From positions 1,470,001 to 1,502,000 of the forward strand of contig NZ_AP014945.1 in NCBI RefSeq assembly GCF_001548275.1: 32,000 nt of DNA, given 5' to 3'. The position numbers were made by a program, and so were the translations under genes. The first letter of the stretch is position 1. Each line of letters begins with the position of its first letter. This document shows positions 1,231 through 30,796 of this stretch, one piece after another. The notes below the pieces were generated by a model. The model worked only from the letters and a program-made list of their open reading frames with translations, did not search any database and was not told where the DNA came from. The stretch comes from Caldimicrobium thiodismutans (GTDB lineage: Bacteria; Desulfobacterota; Thermodesulfobacteria; Thermodesulfobacteriales; Thermodesulfobacteriaceae).

Positions 1231-1270
1231 AGGCTCTCCTCTTTTTTTTGCCAAAAAGGCAGATACACCC

Positions 1271-1557
1271 CCTGTATAAGCTCAGATCCTTACAAGAAAA
1301 AAGGAAGGGTGATAAAAGGGGAATTAGATATCTAAACAAGGGAGGCTTTACAAGTCTATGAAAGTAACACAGGCAATCTTGCCTGTGAAAGTAAAATACA
1401 CTCCAATCTGTGAAAGAAACACAGACAAGAATGTCTGTACTACAACAGACCCACAAAAAAAATTCAAGGGGTATAAAATTTTAAACCCCTACTATTTAAG
1501 TCTCAAAAGACCTGGACGCATACACCCCCTTTGCTTTTTTTAAAAAGATATTAAAAT
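1271..1557 (+). repeat. Copy A (long form) of a dispersed modular intergenic element ending in a promoter module
   Basis: Left box cctgtataagctcagatccttacaagaaaaaaggaagggtgataaaagg. Internal perfect hairpins at 1368-1387 (cacaggcaa/ttgcctgtg) and 1421-1438 (acagaca/tgtctgt). Right box 1498-1529, then TTTGCT (1530-1535), 16 nt, TAAAAT (1552-1557), 7 nt, ATG 1565. Homologous to copies at 6261, 9636, 15290, 29067 and 30321. Confidence 0.75.
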
Positions 1558-5992: not shown

Positions 5993-6211
5993 TTAAACTT
6001 GCGAAAGTTTTTCTATAAGGCCACCAATTTTCTCCTTTAAAACCCTCTTTTCCTCCTCCCTCCTATCTATTTCTTCTTTTAGCCTTCTATTTTCCTCTTC
6101 TTTGTCCTCTAATTTATTTAGTAGCTCTTCTCTCTCTTTTCTGAGTTGAATTACCGTAGAAATAAGACTATCTATTTTTGCTTCAAGTTCACTTACCTCT
6201 TGAAAAGCCAT
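5993..6211 (-). CDS. Small coiled-coil protein (ZapB-like)
   Basis: Start trimmed to ATG 6211 (MAFQEVSELEAKIDS...), which has GGAGG upstream. The longer track ORF (to 6280) would run through the promoter module of repeat copy F. Confidence 0.55.
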   Translation of the reverse strand: MAFQEVSELEAKIDSLISTVIQLRKEREELLNKLEDKEEENRRLKEEIDRREEEKRVLKEKIGGLIEKLSQV

Positions 6212-6260: not shown

Positions 6261-6562
6261 TTGCAAGACCCTCTATGCATCCAAATCTTTTAAGCCTTAA
6301 ATCTACCTCTTTTGGCAGATCAATCTGCCCTTTCCTTTATCATTAATTACAAAACCTTCCCTGTATAAATATTGTAAATCCTCTGGTAGGGGGTAAATAA
6401 TTATTTGCACCTACATTGTTGTCCCCAAATCAATCCCATTTTTGAATAAAATTTATCTAATCCCCATATCCAAGTAGGGGCAAAACTATGTGTATGCCTG
6501 TTATGTGTTCCTTGGCATTACAGGGGTAGATACTCTAAAGGGCTTTTCTTTTTGATCTAAGG
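6261..6562 (-). repeat. Copy F (long form, inverted orientation) of the dispersed intergenic element
   Basis: Read on the minus strand. Shortened left box ccttagatcaaaaagaaaagccc. Core ggaacacataacaggcatacacatagttttgcccct matches aaaacacataacaggcaaacacatagagtttcc of copy B. Right box aaggcttaaaagatttggatgcatagagggtc (6298 to 6267) abuts TTGCAA (6266-6261) upstream of the zapB-like gene. Confidence 0.7.
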
Positions 6563-9635: not shown

Positions 9636-9971
9636 CCTTGCATAGGTTCTGATCATTTTAAGAAAAAAGAAGGGTGAAAAGAAGTGAGGAGTGAGGAGTG
9701 AGGAGTGAGAGGGGAGAGGGGAGAGGGGAGAGGGGAGAGGGGAGAGGTGAAAGGTGAGAGTAGGGGAAGCCCTTTGCGTGTCTGCCCAATAATGTAAAAA
9801 ACACATAACAGGCAAACACATAGAGTTTCCAAAAAAGGGCAAATACATAGGTTTGCCCCTCCAAAATACAGGTTCATTTTCCTACAACCAAGTAGTATAA
9901 AAATTCTATAGAGTCTCAAAAGATATGGACGCATACACCCTCTTGACTTTTAATTCTTAACCAGAGATAAT
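9636..9971 (+). repeat. Copy B (longest form) of the dispersed intergenic element, with promoter module for the aldolase gene
   Basis: Left box ccttgcataggttctgatcattttaagaaaaaagaagggtgaaaag, heptamer array, hairpin gggcaaa/tttgccc. Right box 9911-9942, TTGACT (9943-9948), 17 nt, GATAAT (9966-9971), AGGAGG, ATG 9999. Confidence 0.8.
9683..9766 (+). repeat. 12-unit purine-strand heptamer array (AGTGAGG x3, AGTGAGA, GGGGAGA x5, GGTGAAA, GGTGAGA, GTAGGGG)
   Basis: Strict 7-nt register read directly from the sequence. GGGG runs at 9711, 9718, 9725, 9732 and 9739 give a G4-N3 x5 motif. Confidence 0.95.
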
Positions 9972-12240: not shown

Positions 12241-12833
12241 TATTTTTTAAAAATAAGAGCTACCCGATTAGGACTAAGGGAAATTTCCGCATAAGGTGTG
12301 AAATAGGAGCTAAGATTTGAGATCTCTCCAAGGGAATTTTCATCCAGAGGAAGGTCTGTTTCAAAGGTTAACCCCCCTTCTATTTCTCCAATAAGGATCT
12401 TCACATAAGCTCCCTCGCAGAAGGCAGGATAGAGTTTCTCTCCGAGAAGACAAAGGATCCCCTTTAATTCATTTAAAGGGATAGAAAGGATCACCTTTTG
12501 TAGTTCCTGAAGTTCCTTTTTTACTTTATGTTTAAAAAAGAGATTGGCTTCCCAGAAGAGAAGCTCCTTTTCCATAATCTCCCGTAGATCCCAGGGTCCT
12601 CTGTCTTCATTATTAATATCTCCGAGGGCAACTTCAAGTTGATCCTGAAGCCTCTGCAAAAAAGCCAGGGCCTTTTCCACATGGGTTTGGGCTTGAGAGG
12701 ATAAAAATTGCTCTCTTTTCATAGAAAGTAACTGTAATTGTAAGGAGAGATTTTGAAGAGTTCCCTTTAAATTATGGAAATAACCTCTTACTAAGGAGCC
12801 CAAAGCAAGAGTTCTACAGAGTCTTTCATCCAT
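12240..12833 (-). CDS. Hypothetical protein with degenerate histidine-kinase-like core (H-box-like helix, no recognisable N/G boxes)
   Basis: LVRGYFHNLKGTLQNLSLQLQLL resembles a HisKA H-box helix. The C-terminal half has the alpha/beta pattern of an HATPase domain but lacks the Asn, DxGxG and GxGLG motifs. SD AGGAGG. Confidence 0.45.
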   Translation of the reverse strand: MDERLCRTLALGSLVRGYFHNLKGTLQNLSLQLQLLSMKREQFLSSQAQTHVEKALAFLQRLQDQLEVALGDINNEDRGPWDLREIMEKELLFWEANLFFKHKVKKELQELQKVILSIPLNELKGILCLLGEKLYPAFCEGAYVKILIGEIEGGLTFETDLPLDENSLGEISNLSSYFTPYAEISLSPNRVALIFKK

Positions 12834-12839
12834 GAAATA

Positions 12840-13448
12840 TTATCCTCCTTTCAGATGTTCTCTACCCTGAAAGGCCTTTTTAAGGGTTAAAGGATCAGCA
12901 AATTGAATCTCCATACCCATGGGAATTCCACAGGCAAGCTTGGTAATAGTCAAGGGAAAGGGTTTTAAGATCTCTGCGATATAGGCAGAGGTTGCCTCAC
13001 CTGAGAGAGTTGGAGAGAGAGCTAAGATAACTTCTTTTACCCCGCGCTCCTGAATAAGGTGCAGAAGGCTATCTAAACCAAGCTCCTTTGGTCCAAAGCC
13101 TTCCTTAGGGGAAAGGAGATAGTGTAAGACATAATAATATCCCTTATAAATTCCAATACTTTCAAGATGAAGAAGATTGACAGGATTTTCCACAATACAA
13201 AGTAGCTCCCTTTCTCGGGTTTTATCTTTGCAAATCCCACAGACCTCTTCCTCTGAAAGATTACGGCAGAATTTACAGAGCCTCACTCTAAAGGGAAGTT
13301 CTTTAATTAGATCCCCCAGAAATTCGCAAAGCCCTGGTTTGGAGAGTAAGAAAAGGGAAAGCCTGCTTGCGCTTTTTTCACCAATTCCAGGGAGACTACT
13401 AAGAGCAGAAATAAGTTTTTTTAGAGTGGGTGGATAGTGGTTTTGCAT
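12840..13448 (-). CDS. recR: Recombination protein RecR
   Basis: Helix-hairpin-helix N-terminus (LPGIGEKSA), zinc finger CKFCRNLSEEEVCGIC, Toprim segment. Confidence 0.95.
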   Translation of the reverse strand: MQNHYPPTLKKLISALSSLPGIGEKSASRLSLFLLSKPGLCEFLGDLIKELPFRVRLCKFCRNLSEEEVCGICKDKTRERELLCIVENPVNLLHLESIGIYKGYYYVLHYLLSPKEGFGPKELGLDSLLHLIQERGVKEVILALSPTLSGEATSAYIAEILKPFPLTITKLACGIPMGMEIQFADPLTLKKAFQGREHLKGG

Positions 13449-13789: not shown

Positions 13790-15280
13790 CTACTCCTTTA
13801 GGGGTTGTATGTTTATAATTTTAGCTGAAAAGCTCTGGGCAATAAGCTTAACCTCAGGTCTATCCTTAACCTCCTCTATGGTTGCCCTTTTAGGGGTTTC
13901 AAAGATTAGATTGAGCTTTTTTCCAAAATAACTTTCAACCTTTTCTTTGAGAAGAGGCATATAGGTTGACTTAAGAAAGTCTTTATTAGCCTTAAGAGAA
14001 AGGTTAATTTCCTTTGCCTTTATTTCGGGTTCAGGTAACCCTGAAAGGAGACTATAAGGAGGGGGAGACTCTATTTTTAAGGTCTCTAAGAAGGAAGCCC
14101 AGCTTTTCTCAGATTCTATAGGGCTTAAGTTTTGAGGTATAAGAAGTCCTTCAGCGTTTTTGGAAAGATCTTCAAGTTTTTTAAGAATTTCCTGTAGAGG
14201 GATGAGTTTACCATGTTCACAAATCTTCGCTAAGGTGAGCTCAAATTGTAGTTGAGGATAGGGAGTGCCCTTGAGAATTTCAAGGTCTCTGAGTAAGGTA
14301 TGGAGGATAAGTAAGAGGTCTTCCTGGGAAGTAATAACAAGAAGTTCCCTTAATCTGGGATTTTGAAGATTTAAAGAGCTTTCTTCAGGTAGGGCTTTGG
14401 CTAAGAAGAGGGCTCTGAAAAATTCAGTAAGCTTTTCAGTGAGATAAATAAGATCAAGTCCCCGTTCAAAAAGGTTTTGACTGAGAGTTAAGGCCTTCCG
14501 GAGATCTTTTTCTAAAAGAATCTGAGCTATTTCCTCAACTAAGGCCTCTTCATGCCAGCCAAGGGCTGTAATAAGTTCTTCCTTGGTTGCAACCCCGTAA
14601 GCCATAGCTTGATCAAGAAGAGAAAGGGCATCCCTCATACTTCCTTGAGCCTCTTTGGCAATAAGTTCTAAAGCAGAGGACTCTATGGCATAGGACTCCC
14701 GCTCAGATATACTCTTTAGAAACTGAACCATGGTCCTTAAATCAAGTCTTCTAAAGTCATATCTTTGACACCTTGAGAGAATAGTTGGAGGAAGTCTGTT
14801 TGGTTCTGTGGTTGCAAGTATAAAATAAACATGGGAAGGGGGTTCTTCTAAAGATTTAAGAAGGGCATTGGCTGCCTCTTTAGTTAACATGTGGGCTTCA
14901 TCTATGATGTAAACCTTAGCCCTTCCTCTGGCTGGAGCATACTTTAGAGTTTCAATAAGCTCCCTTACTTGATCAATACCACGATTTGAGGCCGCATCTA
15001 TCTCAAGGACATCTACAAAGATACCTTTGTTTATTTCCTGACAATTCAGACACTCATTACAGGGTTCAAACCCATCTTGAAGATTGAGACAATTTAAGGC
15101 TTTAGCTACAATTCTTGCAATGGTTGTTTTACCAGTTCCTTTAATTCCTGAAAAGAGAAGGGCATGAGTAAGTTTCCCAAGCCTTAGGGCATTCCTTAAG
15201 GTTTTTACTACATGGGATTGCCCCACAACCTCTGAAAATCTTCTGGGACGATATTTTCTTGCTAAAACCAGATAACTCAT
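13790..15280 (-). CDS. dnaX: DNA polymerase III subunit gamma/tau
   Basis: GIKGTGKTT (P-loop), zinc module CLNLQDGFEPCNECLNC, IIDEAHML, SRCQRYDF. No SD; TAAAAT lies 9 nt before the ATG. Confidence 0.95.
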   Translation of the reverse strand: MSYLVLARKYRPRRFSEVVGQSHVVKTLRNALRLGKLTHALLFSGIKGTGKTTIARIVAKALNCLNLQDGFEPCNECLNCQEINKGIFVDVLEIDAASNRGIDQVRELIETLKYAPARGRAKVYIIDEAHMLTKEAANALLKSLEEPPSHVYFILATTEPNRLPPTILSRCQRYDFRRLDLRTMVQFLKSISERESYAIESSALELIAKEAQGSMRDALSLLDQAMAYGVATKEELITALGWHEEALVEEIAQILLEKDLRKALTLSQNLFERGLDLIYLTEKLTEFFRALFLAKALPEESSLNLQNPRLRELLVITSQEDLLLILHTLLRDLEILKGTPYPQLQFELTLAKICEHGKLIPLQEILKKLEDLSKNAEGLLIPQNLSPIESEKSWASFLETLKIESPPPYSLLSGLPEPEIKAKEINLSLKANKDFLKSTYMPLLKEKVESYFGKKLNLIFETPKRATIEEVKDRPEVKLIAQSFSAKIINIQPLKE

Positions 15281-15289
15281 TAAGATTTT

Positions 15290-15349
15290 ATTTTAATGTG
15301 CCTTCAGGAAAAGACAAGGTGATTTATGCGTCCATATCTCTTGAGACTC
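15290..15349 (-). repeat. Copy C (promoter module only) of the dispersed element, facing dnaX
   Basis: Minus strand: gagtctcaagagatatggacgcataaatcacc (15349 to 15318), TTGTCT (15317-15312), 16 nt, TAAAAT (15295-15290), 9 nt, ATG 15280. Confidence 0.75.
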
Positions 15350-15476
15350 AAGAGGATTTTAAGGGGAAAGATTTAAAGCTTAAAAATATGGAGGCTTACA
15401 TTTATATAGACAGCAAGCCTCTATGTTGGTAAAATAAAAAAAGAGATTTACTATTTTTTCATTTAAAGGGTGATAA

Positions 15477-15647: not shown

Positions 15648-16925
15648 ATGATGAACTGGGCTAAAATTATAATTGGCGACAGCAGAAAAATGATAGAAGT
15701 CAAAGAGAGCAGTGTAGATTTAATTATCACATCTCCACCTTACTGGCATATAAAAGATTATGGAGTTAAAGGTCAGATAGGATACGGGCAAAGCCTTCAT
15801 GAGTATTTGAAAGATTTATACAGGATTTGGAAAGAGTGTTATCGGGTTCTTAAACCAGGAAGAAGATTATGTATAAATATAGGTGATCAATTTGCAAGGT
15901 CTATAATTTATGGTCAATATAAAATTATTCCACTTCATGCTGAAGTTATATCTCAATGCGAAGATATAGGGTTTGACTATATGGGTTCAATAATATGGCA
16001 GAAAAAAACCACTATGAATACAACGGGAGGAGCAAATGTAATGGGTTCATATCCATATCCACCTAATGGAATGATTGAAATTGATTATGAATTCATCCTA
16101 ATCTTTAGAAAAGCTGGAAAGACTGAAAAAGTATCACAAGAAATTAAAGAAAAATCAAGATTAACAAAGGAAGAATGGAAAGAATACTTCTATGGACACT
16201 GGAACTTTGGAGGAGCAAAACAAATTCAGCACGAAGCCATGTTTCCAGAAGAATTACCAAAAAGACTAATAAGAATGTATTCATTTGTTGGTGATGTTGT
16301 TCTTGATCCTTTCTTAGGAAGCGGAACTACTATAAAATCTGCTTTGAATTTAAACAGAAACGCAATAGGATATGAAATTAATGAAAAATTTTTAGACATT
16401 ATAAAAGAGAAACTCGGAATAAAACAAAGCATGTTAAAGTTTAGTGAAAACATTCAAATAATAAAACGGGAAATTCCAGTAGAAGTTGAAGAGATTTCTT
16501 ATATTCCGAGAATTAAACCTGCAGAGCCAAAATTAGACCAAAAGAAGTTTAACTTTAATGGCGATAAACTCTACAAAGTGGTTGATGTTATAGATACTTA
16601 TACTATTAAATTAAATACAGGTTTAATTATTAAGCTTTTAGGAGTAGAAGTCATCAAAAAGCAACAGGTGCTGGAATATCTAAATGATAGAGTTAAAGGA
16701 AAAGATGTTTATTTAAAATTTGATAAAGATTCTGTTTTAAATGAAAATACAGTTTGGGCTTATGTTTATTTAAAAAATAAAATTTTCGTGAACGCTTATC
16801 TGATTAAATCTGGACTTGCTGTTGCTGATAAGACAAAAGAGTATAGATATAAAACAAAGTTTATTGAGTTAGAAAAGGAGGTAAAAGATGGCAAAGGAAT
16901 GGATTTTGAATATGGCAACAAATAG
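15648..16925 (+). CDS. Beta-class N4-cytosine/N6-adenine DNA methyltransferase (SPPY type, N4C favoured) fused to a C-terminal degenerate SNase-like OB-fold domain
   Basis: Motif IV DLIITSPPY at the N-terminus and motif I VLDPFLGSGTT at about aa 220 (beta permutation). The C-terminal 130 aa (LYKVVDVIDTYTIKLNTGLIIKLLGVEV...VWAYVYLKNKIFVNAYLIKSGLAV) follows the thermonuclease fold pattern, but the GIDAPE-type catalytic residues are replaced. Confidence 0.85.
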   Translation: MMNWAKIIIGDSRKMIEVKESSVDLIITSPPYWHIKDYGVKGQIGYGQSLHEYLKDLYRIWKECYRVLKPGRRLCINIGDQFARSIIYGQYKIIPLHAEVISQCEDIGFDYMGSIIWQKKTTMNTTGGANVMGSYPYPPNGMIEIDYEFILIFRKAGKTEKVSQEIKEKSRLTKEEWKEYFYGHWNFGGAKQIQHEAMFPEELPKRLIRMYSFVGDVVLDPFLGSGTTIKSALNLNRNAIGYEINEKFLDIIKEKLGIKQSMLKFSENIQIIKREIPVEVEEISYIPRIKPAEPKLDQKKFNFNGDKLYKVVDVIDTYTIKLNTGLIIKLLGVEVIKKQQVLEYLNDRVKGKDVYLKFDKDSVLNENTVWAYVYLKNKIFVNAYLIKSGLAVADKTKEYRYKTKFIELEKEVKDGKGMDFEYGNK

Positions 16926-17568
16926 ATGGGGGCTGAACAAAAAAGATAGTGTAGGACCGGTTTCTAAATGGATTCGTGAGTGTAGTCCTAAGAAAATTGA
17001 AGACTGGGAAAAATATTATTTTAATAAGCTCGCTGATTTTCTTAAAAGTAAGGGTATTTCTTTATCTCCGAAGGAATATATTGACCATTTAGGGAAGAAA
17101 CTGTATATAAAAATCACGGAAGTTATTCAAGCGGAAATCGAAGAAGTGACAGAAGAAGATTGTATTGAATATATCTATAACCTTGTAATTGACAGGACTT
17201 ATGATGGATATCAAACAGAAATAAAAACAATATATGGGAAATTACAAAAAGATTTAGGTATAGAGATAAAACCAGCTCCAGACGAGTGGGATAGACTTTA
17301 TAATGTTGATTTTTACATTCAGGTAGGGGAAAAATATATAGGCTTACAAATAAAACCTATAACTTATGAACAAACACCAGAAATTTACAAATGGAAAGAG
17401 TGGTTGAGCAAAAGTCACAAAAAATTTGAGGGAAAATTTGGAGGTAAAGTATTTGTTATTTTCTCTATAAAGGAAGGTAAAAATAAAAAGATTTTTAATA
17501 AGGATATTGTAAATGAAATGAAAAAAGAAGTTCAAAGATTAGAAAAATTATATGAATTAACCGCATAA
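16888..17568 (+). CDS. Candidate type II restriction endonuclease (PD-(D/E)XK-like), partner of the upstream methyltransferase
   Basis: Overlaps the MTase 3' end by 38 nt, with AAGGAGG 6 nt upstream of the ATG. Possible catalytic core is YNVDFYIQVGEKYIGLQIKP. Family identity (for example MjaI-like) is only a recollection-level guess. Confidence 0.5.
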   Translation: MAKEWILNMATNRWGLNKKDSVGPVSKWIRECSPKKIEDWEKYYFNKLADFLKSKGISLSPKEYIDHLGKKLYIKITEVIQAEIEEVTEEDCIEYIYNLVIDRTYDGYQTEIKTIYGKLQKDLGIEIKPAPDEWDRLYNVDFYIQVGEKYIGLQIKPITYEQTPEIYKWKEWLSKSHKKFEGKFGGKVFVIFSIKEGKNKKIFNKDIVNEMKKEVQRLEKLYELTA

Positions 17569-29066: not shown

Positions 29067-29167
29067 CCTTACATAGGTTCTGATCCTTAGTAGTAAAAAA
29101 ATTTCTTAAATCTCAAAAAATATGGGCTCATAAGCTATCTTGAAAACCATTTAAATTCTGGCAAAAT
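29067..29167 (+). repeat. Copy E (short form) of the dispersed element, facing the Rpn-type gene
   Basis: Left box ccttacataggttctgatcctta. Right box aaatctcaaaaaatatgggctcataagctatc (29108-29139), TTGAAA (29140-29145), 16 nt, CAAAAT (29162-29167), 6 nt, ATG 29174. Confidence 0.7.
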
Positions 29168-29173
29168 ACCTCT

Positions 29174-30172
29174 ATGTCAAAGAAGAAACCTCCTGTTCCC
29201 TATGACCTTTTTGCCAAGGCCTTCCTCAAAGACCCTGAAAACTTAAAAGGCTTCCTCTCAACCTTCCTCCCTGATCACATTAAAACTCATCTTGACCTTG
29301 ACTCCCTTAAAATCATCCCTGAAGAACAAGTTTCTCTCTCAAGAAAAAAGCGAGAAATCCCGGACCTTGTTGCTGAGGTTAATCTCCTTAGTGAAGGGCA
29401 ACCTTCAACCAAAGCCCATCTCTACATCCTTATTGAGCACAAAAGTGCACCTGATAAAAGGATTTACCTTCAGATTTTAAATTACATAACGGCATTAAAT
29501 GAAAAGTCTTTCAAGGAGGGGAAGGGGTATGTGCCTGTTTTACCTCTTGTATTCTATGAAGGGGATAAGCCCTGGGGGTATCCTGAAAGGATAGAGGAGA
29601 TATTTTCAGTGCCAGAGGGGTTAAAGGGAGAACTTTTTAAGGTTCATGTGGTAGATTTAAAGAGGGTAGAGGATGAGAAGATATTGGAGGTATTTGATAT
29701 TTTAGCAGGGCTTGGGTGTTATCTTTATTTAATAAAGGCGGAAGCAGGTAATTTTGAAGAGATGATAGATATGGTGGTAAGAGCGGTAAATAGGTTAATT
29801 GCGATAGGGGAGAAGGGGAGGTGGGAGATAGGGTTTTTAATTACGATATCTGAAATAAAGTTTAGGGTTGACGGGGAGGTAATCTGGTTTAATATATTAG
29901 ATAGGTGTGGAGAAGAGGGGGTAAAGATGGAATTAAAGAGCTTTTGGGATAGAGTGGGAGAGAAATTTTATCAGAAGGGGAAATATCAGGGGTTAATTGA
30001 GGAGGCAAGGGAGCTTGTGCTTGAGGCCATAGAGGTGAAGCTTGGGTATGTGCCTGAGGAAGTGAGGGAGAGGGTGGTAAGAGAGGAGGATAGAGGAGTT
30101 CTCAAGGAGTGGCTGAGGAAAATAATTCTTGCGAAGAATTCTGAAGATATCTTTCAACTTTTTGAAAATTGA
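29174..30172 (+). CDS. Rpn/YhgA-family recombination-promoting nuclease (PD-(D/E)XK, so-called transposase_31) with DUF4351-like C-terminal domain
   Basis: N-terminal YDLFAKAFLKDPENLKGFL, core PDLVAEV...HLYILIEHKS, C-terminal helical domain. No SD (leaderless-like). Confidence 0.8.
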   Translation: MSKKKPPVPYDLFAKAFLKDPENLKGFLSTFLPDHIKTHLDLDSLKIIPEEQVSLSRKKREIPDLVAEVNLLSEGQPSTKAHLYILIEHKSAPDKRIYLQILNYITALNEKSFKEGKGYVPVLPLVFYEGDKPWGYPERIEEIFSVPEGLKGELFKVHVVDLKRVEDEKILEVFDILAGLGCYLYLIKAEAGNFEEMIDMVVRAVNRLIAIGEKGRWEIGFLITISEIKFRVDGEVIWFNILDRCGEEGVKMELKSFWDRVGEKFYQKGKYQGLIEEARELVLEAIEVKLGYVPEEVRERVVREEDRGVLKEWLRKIILAKNSEDIFQLFEN

Positions 30173-30320
30173 TAATTTCATTATTTATTTAACCTATCTA
30201 ACTTTATCAACTGTTATGGCTTTATTAGAAATTTATTAAAATTTTAAACTCCTTCAACAAAATCATTTATTCAATTAAAATTAAAAGACGCTATTGAATA
30301 TTTCAAAAATAAGGATAGGG

Positions 30321-30456
30321 GTGCATAAGTTGAGATCTTTACATAAAAATAGGTGGAAATAGGTTAGAGGTGAGAAGTAGCAGAAAAAATCATCTTGAGT
30401 CACAAAAGATATGGACGCTAACAAGGCCTTGTCTTTTATGCTCAGGGCTATATAAT
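30321..30456 (+). repeat. Copy D (short form) of the dispersed element, facing the cytochrome c gene
   Basis: Left box gtgcataagttgagatctttacataaaaataggtgg. Right box gagtcacaaaagatatggacgctaacaaggcc (30397-30428), TTGTCT (30429-30434), 16 nt, TATAAT (30451-30456), AGGAGG, ATG 30482. Confidence 0.75.
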
Positions 30457-30481: not shown

Positions 30482-30796
30482 ATGAAAAAGTCAGTATTAT
30501 TAATGGCTCTTATCTTTTTACCAACCTTAGGGTTTGCCTCAAATGGAGAAGAGATTTTTAAAACTAAGGGGTGTGGTGGTTGCCACTCTAAAGAATATGA
30601 CTCTTTTGCCCCATCCTTAAAGACTATTTCTAAAAGTTATTACAAGAAAAATCAGGAGTTGAAAGATTATTTACAGGGAAAAAAGCCTGGCCTTATCAAA
30701 GGTGAGCCTAAGACCATGAAAGGTTTTATTAATATTACTAAAAAACTTAGTGAAAAAGATCTCTCCGCCCTTATAGAGTATTTACTTTCCTTTTAG
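30482..30796 (+). CDS. Small secreted mono-heme c-type cytochrome
   Basis: Signal peptide MKKSVLLMALIFLPTLGFA, heme-binding CGGCH, 104 aa. Confidence 0.85.
   Translation: MKKSVLLMALIFLPTLGFASNGEEIFKTKGCGGCHSKEYDSFAPSLKTISKSYYKKNQELKDYLQGKKPGLIKGEPKTMKGFINITKKLSEKDLSALIEYLLSF

Follow-up and report, generated by a model that had tools for sequence, protein, structure and literature searches.

The upstream promoter (UP) element of Escherichia coli rrnB P1 and the CRP site at -61.5 are both located directly upstream of the -35 hexamer of a promoter. [quoted passage not shown] A review of such elements describes them as no more than "normally intergenic", and reports none at a set distance from a resident -35 or other promoter element (PMC10969869). 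Matus-Garcia, Nijveen and van Passel (2012) defined putative mobile promoters as sequences that are at least 80% identical across 50 or more nucleotides (nt) upstream of non-homologous genes (PMC3575422). In this study, we analyzed a 32,000-nt stretch of the genome of Caldimicrobium thiodismutans (contig NZ_AP014945.1, positions 1,470,001 to 1,502,000; hereafter the window), in which an initial annotation had noticed a 32-nt box immediately upstream of the -35 hexamer of six unrelated genes. Our results favor, with moderate confidence, the interpretation that this box is the right terminus of a species-restricted, MITE-like family whose members have inserted one-way, 5 bp upstream of pre-existing sigma-70-type -35 hexamers.

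Four of the boxes (copies A, B, D and E) read on the forward strand and two (C and F) on the reverse strand, and all six were verified, each ending at a TTG. Scored with a 26-nt weight matrix that covered box positions 1-26 only and excluded the -35 hexamer, they reached 30.7-42.0 bits, compared to 16.9 bits for the runner-up site on both strands of the window (64 kb) and 17.5 bits for the best site in the 20 shuffles that served as a control. With up to three mismatches to the box consensus, four sites were found in the window versus 0.00 expected, in agreement with the earlier proposal that the copies are far too many for chance. The TTG starts exactly 32 nt past the start of the box in six of six window copies and is followed, 16-17 nt beyond the -35, by a -10-like hexamer, that of copy F being ambiguous, as the initial annotation had also noted. 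A profile search identified a degenerate seventh copy, C' (15375-15400, forward strand), which abuts copy C back-to-back and has TAGACA-17-TAAAAT downstream of it. The hexamers downstream of the boxes belong, as had been proposed, to genuine sigma-70-type promoters of unrelated genes.

The dnaX product of the window is 100% identical to that of C. thiodismutans. Conspecific loci were fetched via identical or paralogous proteins, and their DNA is 99% identical to that of the window. Three of these (L021-L023) represent the same region as the window and three (L026, L027 and L031) other regions of C. thiodismutans, so that the latter and the window comprise ~76 kb of non-redundant DNA of this type from a 1.81-Mb genome. 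A search with the matrix lacking the -35 identified eight further copies in the ~44 kb beyond the window, for a total of 14 full or near-full copies, and in all 14 the TTG is 32 nt past the start of the box (33 nt in one, which has a 1-nt insertion inside the box). All full copies seen point the same way, the right end of each lying 5 bp upstream of the -35, and the preference in orientation and distance that the initial annotation expected of further copies was evident in the DNA examined. A -10-like hexamer was present 16-18 nt beyond the -35 in all 11 copies that were tabulated. No strong copy was found within genes or away from promoter-like sites in the ~76 kb, and the partial copies that were detected retain the promoter-proximal 15-17 nt of the box. 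One copy is upstream of rimP-nusA and four copies precede tRNA genes (Met/Cys, Ser, Leu and Ala), the mature 5' end of the tRNA being 8-15 nt past the -10 in the three that were measured (Met/Cys, Ser and Leu), which argues that the promoters are real. Copies occur at a density of ~1 per 5.4 kb, which by simple extrapolation would mean ~300 in the genome and a copy at about one in three promoters.

The box had been considered a free-standing 32-nt unit, but it proved to be the terminus of a longer repeat of 65-300 nt that has a second conserved end. These elements start with 5'-TGCATAAGTTCAGATCC, i.e. TG(C/T)ATAAGYTCAGATCC, which is part of a left-end module that we refer to as M1 (TGCATAAGTTCAGATCCTTACAAGAAAAAAGGAAGGG), and they end with GGACGCATACA-3', i.e. 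...CTCAAAAGATATGGACGCATACA-3'. The right terminus is 27 nt long, and the original 32-nt box consists of this terminus and five nt of resident spacer. M1 was found upstream of nine boxes at distances of 38-272 nt, in each case in the same orientation as the box, and its alignment was used to set the left boundaries of the elements. Element A is alike in sequence to a copy in L031 (window 1269-1540 versus L031 12786-13054, the element part being 12786-13045), with 90-93% identity over ~265 nt and 90.4% over 272 nt. The similarity has a sharp start at TG(T/C)ATAAG in M1 and stops at the -35, and the genes downstream are unrelated, encoding a repeat protein in the window and ribBA in L031. Element B is homologous, with indels, to L031 18041-18260. 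Members of different subfamilies have in common M1, the box with ~14 nt upstream of it and sometimes another module, M2. Their interiors differ, consisting of hairpins, a purine heptad minisatellite or an M2 repeat depending on the subfamily, and are mosaics of modules at variable spacing.

The two ends of the elements are imperfect inverted repeats, as the left consensus and the reverse-complemented right consensus, aligned without offset, agree at 13 of 20 positions (shuffle p=0.0003). In four of nine elements the alignment of one end with the other begins at position 0, and the tips are TG...CA. Comparison of the 5 bp on either side of ten elements revealed identical flanks in element A (CCCCC) and in an element of a sister lineage (AATCT), a match at four of five positions in one element, at three of five in two and at two or fewer in five. 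With left boundaries taken from the M1 alignment, the mean match was 2.7 of five positions for cognate pairs versus 1.57 for non-cognate pairs (permutation p=0.005), and the 5-nt spacer probably represents one copy of a 5-bp target-site duplication. There is no conserved open reading frame (ORF), since the sole candidate is destroyed by a 2-nt indel between element A and its ribBA twin. The family thus consists of short (under ~500 nt), non-coding, dispersed copies with terminal inverted repeats, albeit imperfect ones, as is characteristic of MITEs.

The initial annotation had also raised the possibility of a mobile promoter cassette, that is, a repeat which brings along a -35 and -10 and has taken the place of native promoters, and had suggested comparison with relatives that lack the box. 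That comparison was undertaken with loci of other species (L010-L014 and L028-L030), in which dnaX is 77-85% identical and NusA 86-90% identical to the C. thiodismutans counterparts. Upstream of dnaX the sequence from the -35 through the ATG is kept in the box-less loci L010, L011 and L014, as illustrated by the promoter in L010, TTGTCTTTTCATAAAGTCAATTTAAAATAAAAACTTAATG, versus that in the window, TTGTCTTTTCCTGAAGGCACATTAAAATAAAATCTTAATG, whose conserved parts are TTGTCTTTTC...TAAAATAAA..TTAATG. In L010 the DNA upstream of the TTG has a terminator-like hairpin and no box. The aldolase -10, GATAATAG, is kept in both L010 and L011, which are box-less there too, and the rimP core promoter, TTGACAGAA...AAGAAGTTAAAATT, is kept in box-less L028 and L030. 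Within the species itself, the sequence that three Rpn paralogs have in common begins with the 5-nt spacer, and a box precedes the window copy alone. The Rpn homology starts exactly at window 29135, the first spacer base of element E, from which it follows that this spacer is resident DNA. The spacers are also near those of box-less versions (CTATC at Rpn versus CTCTC in a paralog; TTTTC at rimP versus TTTCC in L028), so that spacer, -35 and -10 alike can be regarded as resident. The core promoters of dnaX, aldolase, rimP and Rpn therefore pre-date the element.

These findings leave a cassette with its own promoter highly improbable, even though the part of that proposal that posited the spread of a sequence by copying stands. 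The core promoter is not part of the repeated unit, the only exception being the tRNA-Ser and rimP copies, which resemble each other over the box, the -35, the spacer and the -10 (38 nt at 92%). That exception, the occurrence of TTGACA after six of the 14 copies, and the fact that the family falls within the operational definition of putative mobile promoters (PMC3575422) are what a cassette would have in its favor. Against these are the end of the A/ribBA similarity at the -35, the 4-5 nt without information between box and -35, and the match of the dnaX, rimP and aldolase promoters (-35, spacer and -10) to those of box-less relatives and of the Rpn promoter to those of box-less paralogs.

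The Rpn genes (PF04754, YhgA-like) are of note in their own right, as gene and promoter together form a repeated unit of ~1.05 kb with 92-93% identity that begins 5 nt upstream of the -35. Copies of this unit were found at window 29135-30208, L026 2328-3441, L027 9962-11005 and L031 9962-11048. Synteny between the conspecific loci L027 and L031 is lost 18 nt past the Rpn stop codon, indicating that the unit marks a rearrangement breakpoint.

The distribution of information within the box provides a further indication of its origin. Conservation is confined to positions 1-27, which carry 35.4 bits (small-sample corrected), whereas positions 28-31 have ~0 bits and position 32 is mostly C; the -35 hexamer contributes another 6.8 bits. 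The initial annotation was correct to place the box upstream of the -35, but its conserved part spans about -41 to -67 (27 nt) and not the full 32 nt. Beyond the box, conservation continues for ~14 nt in the upstream direction, and some copies are conserved as far as M1, 40-275 nt upstream. Locating 14 sites in 76 kb requires ~13.4 bits, and the large excess over this value is evidence that the copies are of common descent and did not converge on a binding site. Shared descent thus explains why the box is alike among otherwise unrelated promoters.

A different explanation of the box is that it is the operator of a global transcription factor, or a UP-like site for the C-terminal domain of the RNA polymerase alpha subunit (alpha-CTD), kept by selection at about a third of promoters, with the longer similarities being segmental duplications and no transposition being involved. 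Several features would fit such a site, including the strict register to the -35 in 14 of 14 copies, the box being the sole part conserved between subfamilies, the survival of the promoter-proximal 15-17 nt in partial copies, and the presence of the box at highly expressed genes (tRNAs and rimP-nusA). In addition, there is an A-tract, CAAAAG, near -57 (box positions 8-11), and a palindrome, TTGAG-T-CTCAA, centered near -64, a typical class I activator position, with a compensating pair of changes (TTAAG/CTTAA) in two copies. However, the site carries 35 bits where ~13 would suffice, an excess typical of common descent, and it is missing at the orthologous dnaX, aldolase and rimP promoters of the relatives despite their conserved core promoters. 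An operator of a regulon would be expected to carry about as much information as is needed and to be conserved at orthologous genes, and the box does neither. Nor would an inverted second end, TG...CA tips and 5-bp flanking repeats be expected of a binding site, and the A+T content of the box appears too low for a classical UP element, since GGACGC at -51 to -46 is not A+T-rich, although the position of the box matches that of such elements (-40 to -60, contacted by alpha-CTD). We therefore consider an operator or UP-like site unlikely to be the origin of the box.

Passive spread of the sequence by recombination, gene conversion or template switching, with the -35 or core promoter acting as one homology arm and no transposase or target selection, was also considered. 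It could account for the right boundary always being at the only sequence common to the promoters (C/TTGAC), for the variable extent of similarity on the promoter side and for the interiors being mosaics of modules with variable spacing. A homology of 4-7 nt is too short for RecA-type exchange, though, and the sharp left boundary at M1, the inverted-repeat ends and the element-specific 5-bp flanks would be left without an explanation, which makes this route improbable.

To date the family has been seen in C. thiodismutans alone, plus one copy in a sister lineage. Boxes and M1 were absent from ~105 kb of Caldimicrobium-like relatives except for that copy in L028 (2501-2770, 270 nt, flanks AATCT), which is 5 bp from TTGACA-17-TATAAT. 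Pattern scans of species-representative genomes, among which the C. thiodismutans reference genome is not included, Joint Genome Institute (JGI) metagenomes and viral contigs returned only chance matches inside genes of unrelated taxa. A literature search yielded nothing relevant on this sequence or on repeats or promoters of Caldimicrobium, consistent with the initial annotation, which did not recognize it as a described element. Copies B, C, F and tRNA-Ser are common to conspecific strains. Orthologous promoters in other species do not have the element, the DNA upstream of them is otherwise not alignable, and no exact empty site was recovered. A different repeat, resembling repetitive extragenic palindromic (REP) hairpins, GCAGGCTGAAGCCTGCGGCTACC, occurs in the relatives in the corresponding promoter-upstream DNA (L014 1-120 and 5400-5605), and three copies of it lie inside the sole box-bearing element of L028 (2540-2740).

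Insertion of a MITE-like family is the interpretation that best accommodates the anatomy of the elements, their register and the age of the core promoters, but a number of observations weigh against it. The inverted repeats are only ~65% alike, and the flanking repeats are convincing in two to five of the ten elements, with left boundaries that were chosen from the M1 alignment. The 76 kb examined, a sample of a 1.8-Mb genome, contained neither an autonomous element nor a transposase with these ends, and no filled-versus-empty polymorphic site was detected within the species. The register has exceptions in a 15-nt partial copy upstream of a sigma-70 gene, which is 8 nt from TTGAAA (L026 3590), and in C', which is 6 nt from TAGACA, and the tRNA-Phe promoter in L031 has no element. 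Moreover, the box alone is conserved among distant copies, as selection on a protein-binding site would also give, and the palindrome TTGAG-T-CTCAA looks like an operator half-pair.

If the family is indeed mobile, its members would have spread by transposition that selects a position beside the -35. A docking point 5 bp from the -35 is unusual and very precise for such an element. That the register may be the outcome of target choice is suggested by the fact that random insertion followed by selection would be expected to leave copies elsewhere in the ~8 kb of non-coding DNA, and none were seen. The cue for targeting could be the C/TTGAC sequence or promoter-bound RNA polymerase. In its present location the terminus fills -41 to -67, where it may function as an upstream promoter element or be bound by a protein of the element itself. 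The cell must tolerate it at the very least, because it replaces the native -41 to -67 region at tRNA, dnaX and rimP promoters, and a function as an upstream element or protein-binding site would be compatible with the A-tract near -57, the palindrome near -64 and the fact that promoter-proximal pieces of the box survive. Any effect on transcription can only be inferred at this stage. It is conceivable, although we regard it as doubtful, that this is a transposable family that chooses its sites by reading promoters. Such a family would insert in one set orientation into the 5 bp that immediately precede the -35, guided by C/TTGAC or by the distortion of DNA by sigma region 4 and the alpha-CTD of bound RNA polymerase. 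By doing so it would install the same 27-nt upstream module, either a portable UP/activator site or a transposase-binding site, at roughly a third of promoters, including those of tRNA and essential genes.

Should the element choose its position, it would represent the first bacterial counterpart of the promoter-targeting integration of Ty3 and TRE5 and would offer a natural means of marking sigma-70 promoters with single-nucleotide precision. Should selection instead keep the position, a single mobile module would be rewiring the upstream region of hundreds of promoters in one species, which would show directly how mobile DNA can drive the evolution of regulation in the small genome of a thermophile. 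In both cases, the copies constitute a ready-made, testable map of promoters, several with probably leaderless mRNAs, for an organism without transcription data.

Other candidate identities for the box were tried and rejected. A structured RNA was ruled out, as the folding z-scores ranged from +1.3 to -0.7 with no Rfam family at gathering score; the box is also upstream of the predicted transcription start. A sigma-54 promoter was dismissed by eye, on sequence only, because the TGG-N-TTG spacing is wrong and there is no conserved GC at -12, as was an IHF site, the best alignment to WATCAANNNNTTR having two to three mismatches. A divergent promoter via the opposite-strand TTGAGA fits copy A only, its spacing being inconsistent elsewhere, and a GANTC methylation site is not general to the family, with GAGTC in some copies only. 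An IS200/IS605- or IS91-type insertion sequence was also considered based on the CTTG after every copy, but four variable nt precede this motif and the ends have no hairpins. Lastly, an apparent deletion of the 22-nt core upstream of dnaX in L014, an 85% relative, was set aside, as the alignment there is unreliable.

The individual elements of the window vary considerably in length. Element A is of A-type and 252 nt long (1273-1524, forward strand), with its left end, M1, at 1273-1309 (TGTATAAGCTCAGATCC...) and its box at 1498-1524, and the CCCCC flanks are at 1268-1272 and 1525-1529. The resident promoter downstream (1530-1557, forward strand; TTTGCT-16-TAAAAT) serves ORF 1565-2479, the repeat protein, whose ATG is 7 nt past the -10, so its mRNA is probably leaderless. 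The interior of the element, 1330-1495, is a chain of five short perfect hairpins, e.g. CACAGGCAATCTTGCCTGTG and GGGGTATAAAATTTTAAACCCC; substitutions in the ribBA twin break these stems and do not compensate, which makes a conserved RNA structure unlikely. Element B is of B-type and 299 nt (9639-9937, forward strand) and comprises M1 at 9639-9674, the heptad minisatellite at 9684-9747, an M2 repeat at 9838-9862 and the box at 9911-9937, followed by the spacer CCCTC (9938-9942) and the resident aldolase promoter (9943-9971, forward strand; TTGACT-17-GATAAT). The minisatellite is purine-rich, with three GTGAGGA and five GAGAGGG heptads, and the number of GAGAGG(G/T) units is five, four or one among strains with 99% identity. 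The M2 repeat (GGCAAACACATAGGTTTGCCCCTAC) has the form of an imperfect hairpin, sometimes in tandem, and is always upstream of a box and co-oriented with it. It was identified in the window at 9838-9862 (forward strand) and 6474-6498 (reverse strand), and also at L026 10756 (reverse strand), L027 9826 (reverse strand) and L031 18159 (forward strand). Its core, CATAGGTT, is present in M1 too.

Element C/C' (15323-15400, 78 nt, reverse strand) has box-like termini at both ends, each facing a promoter. Box C (15349 to 15323, reverse strand) is directed toward dnaX, whose resident promoter is at 15290-15317 (reverse strand; TTGTCT-16-TAAAAT) with the ATG at 15280, 9 nt past the -10. The degenerate C' is directed toward a restriction-modification (RM) gene island via a divergent promoter at 15407-15435 (forward strand; TAGACA-17-TAAAAT with a TG), the RM genes being variable between strains. 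Element D (30322-30423, 102 nt, forward strand) has M1 at 30322-30353, the box at 30397-30423, the spacer AGGCC at 30424-30428 and the left flank AGGGG, and is followed by the promoter of a small cytochrome c-like ORF, 30482-30796 (30429-30456, forward strand; TTGTCT-16-TATAAT). Element E (29070-29134, 65 nt, forward strand) is the most compact and most diverged, with M1 at 29070-29090, the box at 29108-29134 and the spacer CTATC at 29135-29139; the resident Rpn promoter (29140-29167, forward strand; TTGAAA-16-CAAAAT) places the ATG at 29174, 6 nt past the -10. Element F (6272-6351, reverse strand) is ~80 nt long with a tentative left end, as its M1-like end (6351 to 6328) is degenerate; its box runs from 6298 to 6272 and its spacer, GGGTC, from 6271 to 6267. 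The -35 of the zapB-like/zapA operon, TTGCAA, is at 6261-6266 (reverse strand), its -10 is the ambiguous one, and translation probably starts at 6211, behind an AGGAGG. The starts at 1565 (repeat protein), 15280 (dnaX) and 29174 (Rpn) are only 5-9 nt past the predicted -10 and have no Shine-Dalgarno sequence, and these three mRNAs are probably leaderless, whereas the aldolase, cytochrome c and zapB-like genes have AGGAGG leaders.

The RM island, beside dnaX and downstream of the C' promoter, differs among conspecific strains (window 15648-17568; L022 5800-8135; L023 47-3533), with homology between the window and L022 ending at 15713 and between the window and L023 at 16903, and one slot is occupied by three different sets of methyltransferase and nuclease genes. 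ORF 1565-2479 has seven 42-nt (14-residue) tandem repeats at 1677-2096 and had weak coiled-coil or SMC-like matches only, and its ortholog in a metagenome-assembled genome (MAG) is shorter (217 residues, DUF8196). L021 and L022 (GCA_017880035.1, JAEDZT010002866.1, 263-297 kb) have a 13.8-kb tandem duplication of the dnaX-to-ymdB block with its join inside the ortholog of ORF 1565-2479; this duplication in the MAG is probably an assembly artefact from strain mixtures.

Among known systems, the C. thiodismutans family resembles the promoter-influencing MITEs in that its members are short, non-coding, multi-copy and intergenic, have terminal inverted repeats and lie just upstream of genes; flanking repeats that would represent target-site duplications, another feature of such MITEs, are clear in a minority of the elements. 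The internal minisatellite of element B has a parallel in BrickBuilt (PMC4596501). The family differs from the promoter-influencing MITEs in that the core promoter is resident and that all full copies share one orientation and stop 5 bp short of the -35. Correia elements differ further in having TA as their target and not a 5-bp duplication. Element A and the ribBA copy (90-93% over ~265 nt) also conform to the definition of putative mobile promoters, but that class is defined by similarity alone and its mechanism and boundaries are not known (PMC3575422), whereas in the present family the boundaries and termini are resolved, as is the relation to the -35, and the mobile part excludes the core promoter. 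The box resembles UP elements and class I activator sites in occupying about -41 to -67, directly upstream of the -35 and at tRNA promoters among others, and in its A-tract near -57, and differs from them in being a near-invariant, G+C-containing, information-rich and lineage-specific sequence of 27 nt that is part of a longer repeat.

Among transposons that select their targets, Tn7-like elements, Tn5053/Tn402 and Mu have TG...CA ends and generate 5-bp duplications, and the TG...CA tips, 5-bp flanks and oriented insertion at a fixed distance from a recognized feature in C. thiodismutans would, by analogy, be in keeping with Tn7-like elements, Tn5053 and Mu. No transposase or target-selector gene was seen here, and the sites are a whole class of promoters, unlike the one or few attachment sites that Tn7-like elements recognize. 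We know of no bacterial element that targets -35 hexamers. In eukaryotes, promoter-targeting retrotransposons are represented by Ty3 and by TRE5 of Dictyostelium, and the C. thiodismutans family may be likened to Ty3 in its apparent insertion beside a binding site of the transcription machinery, tRNA genes included.

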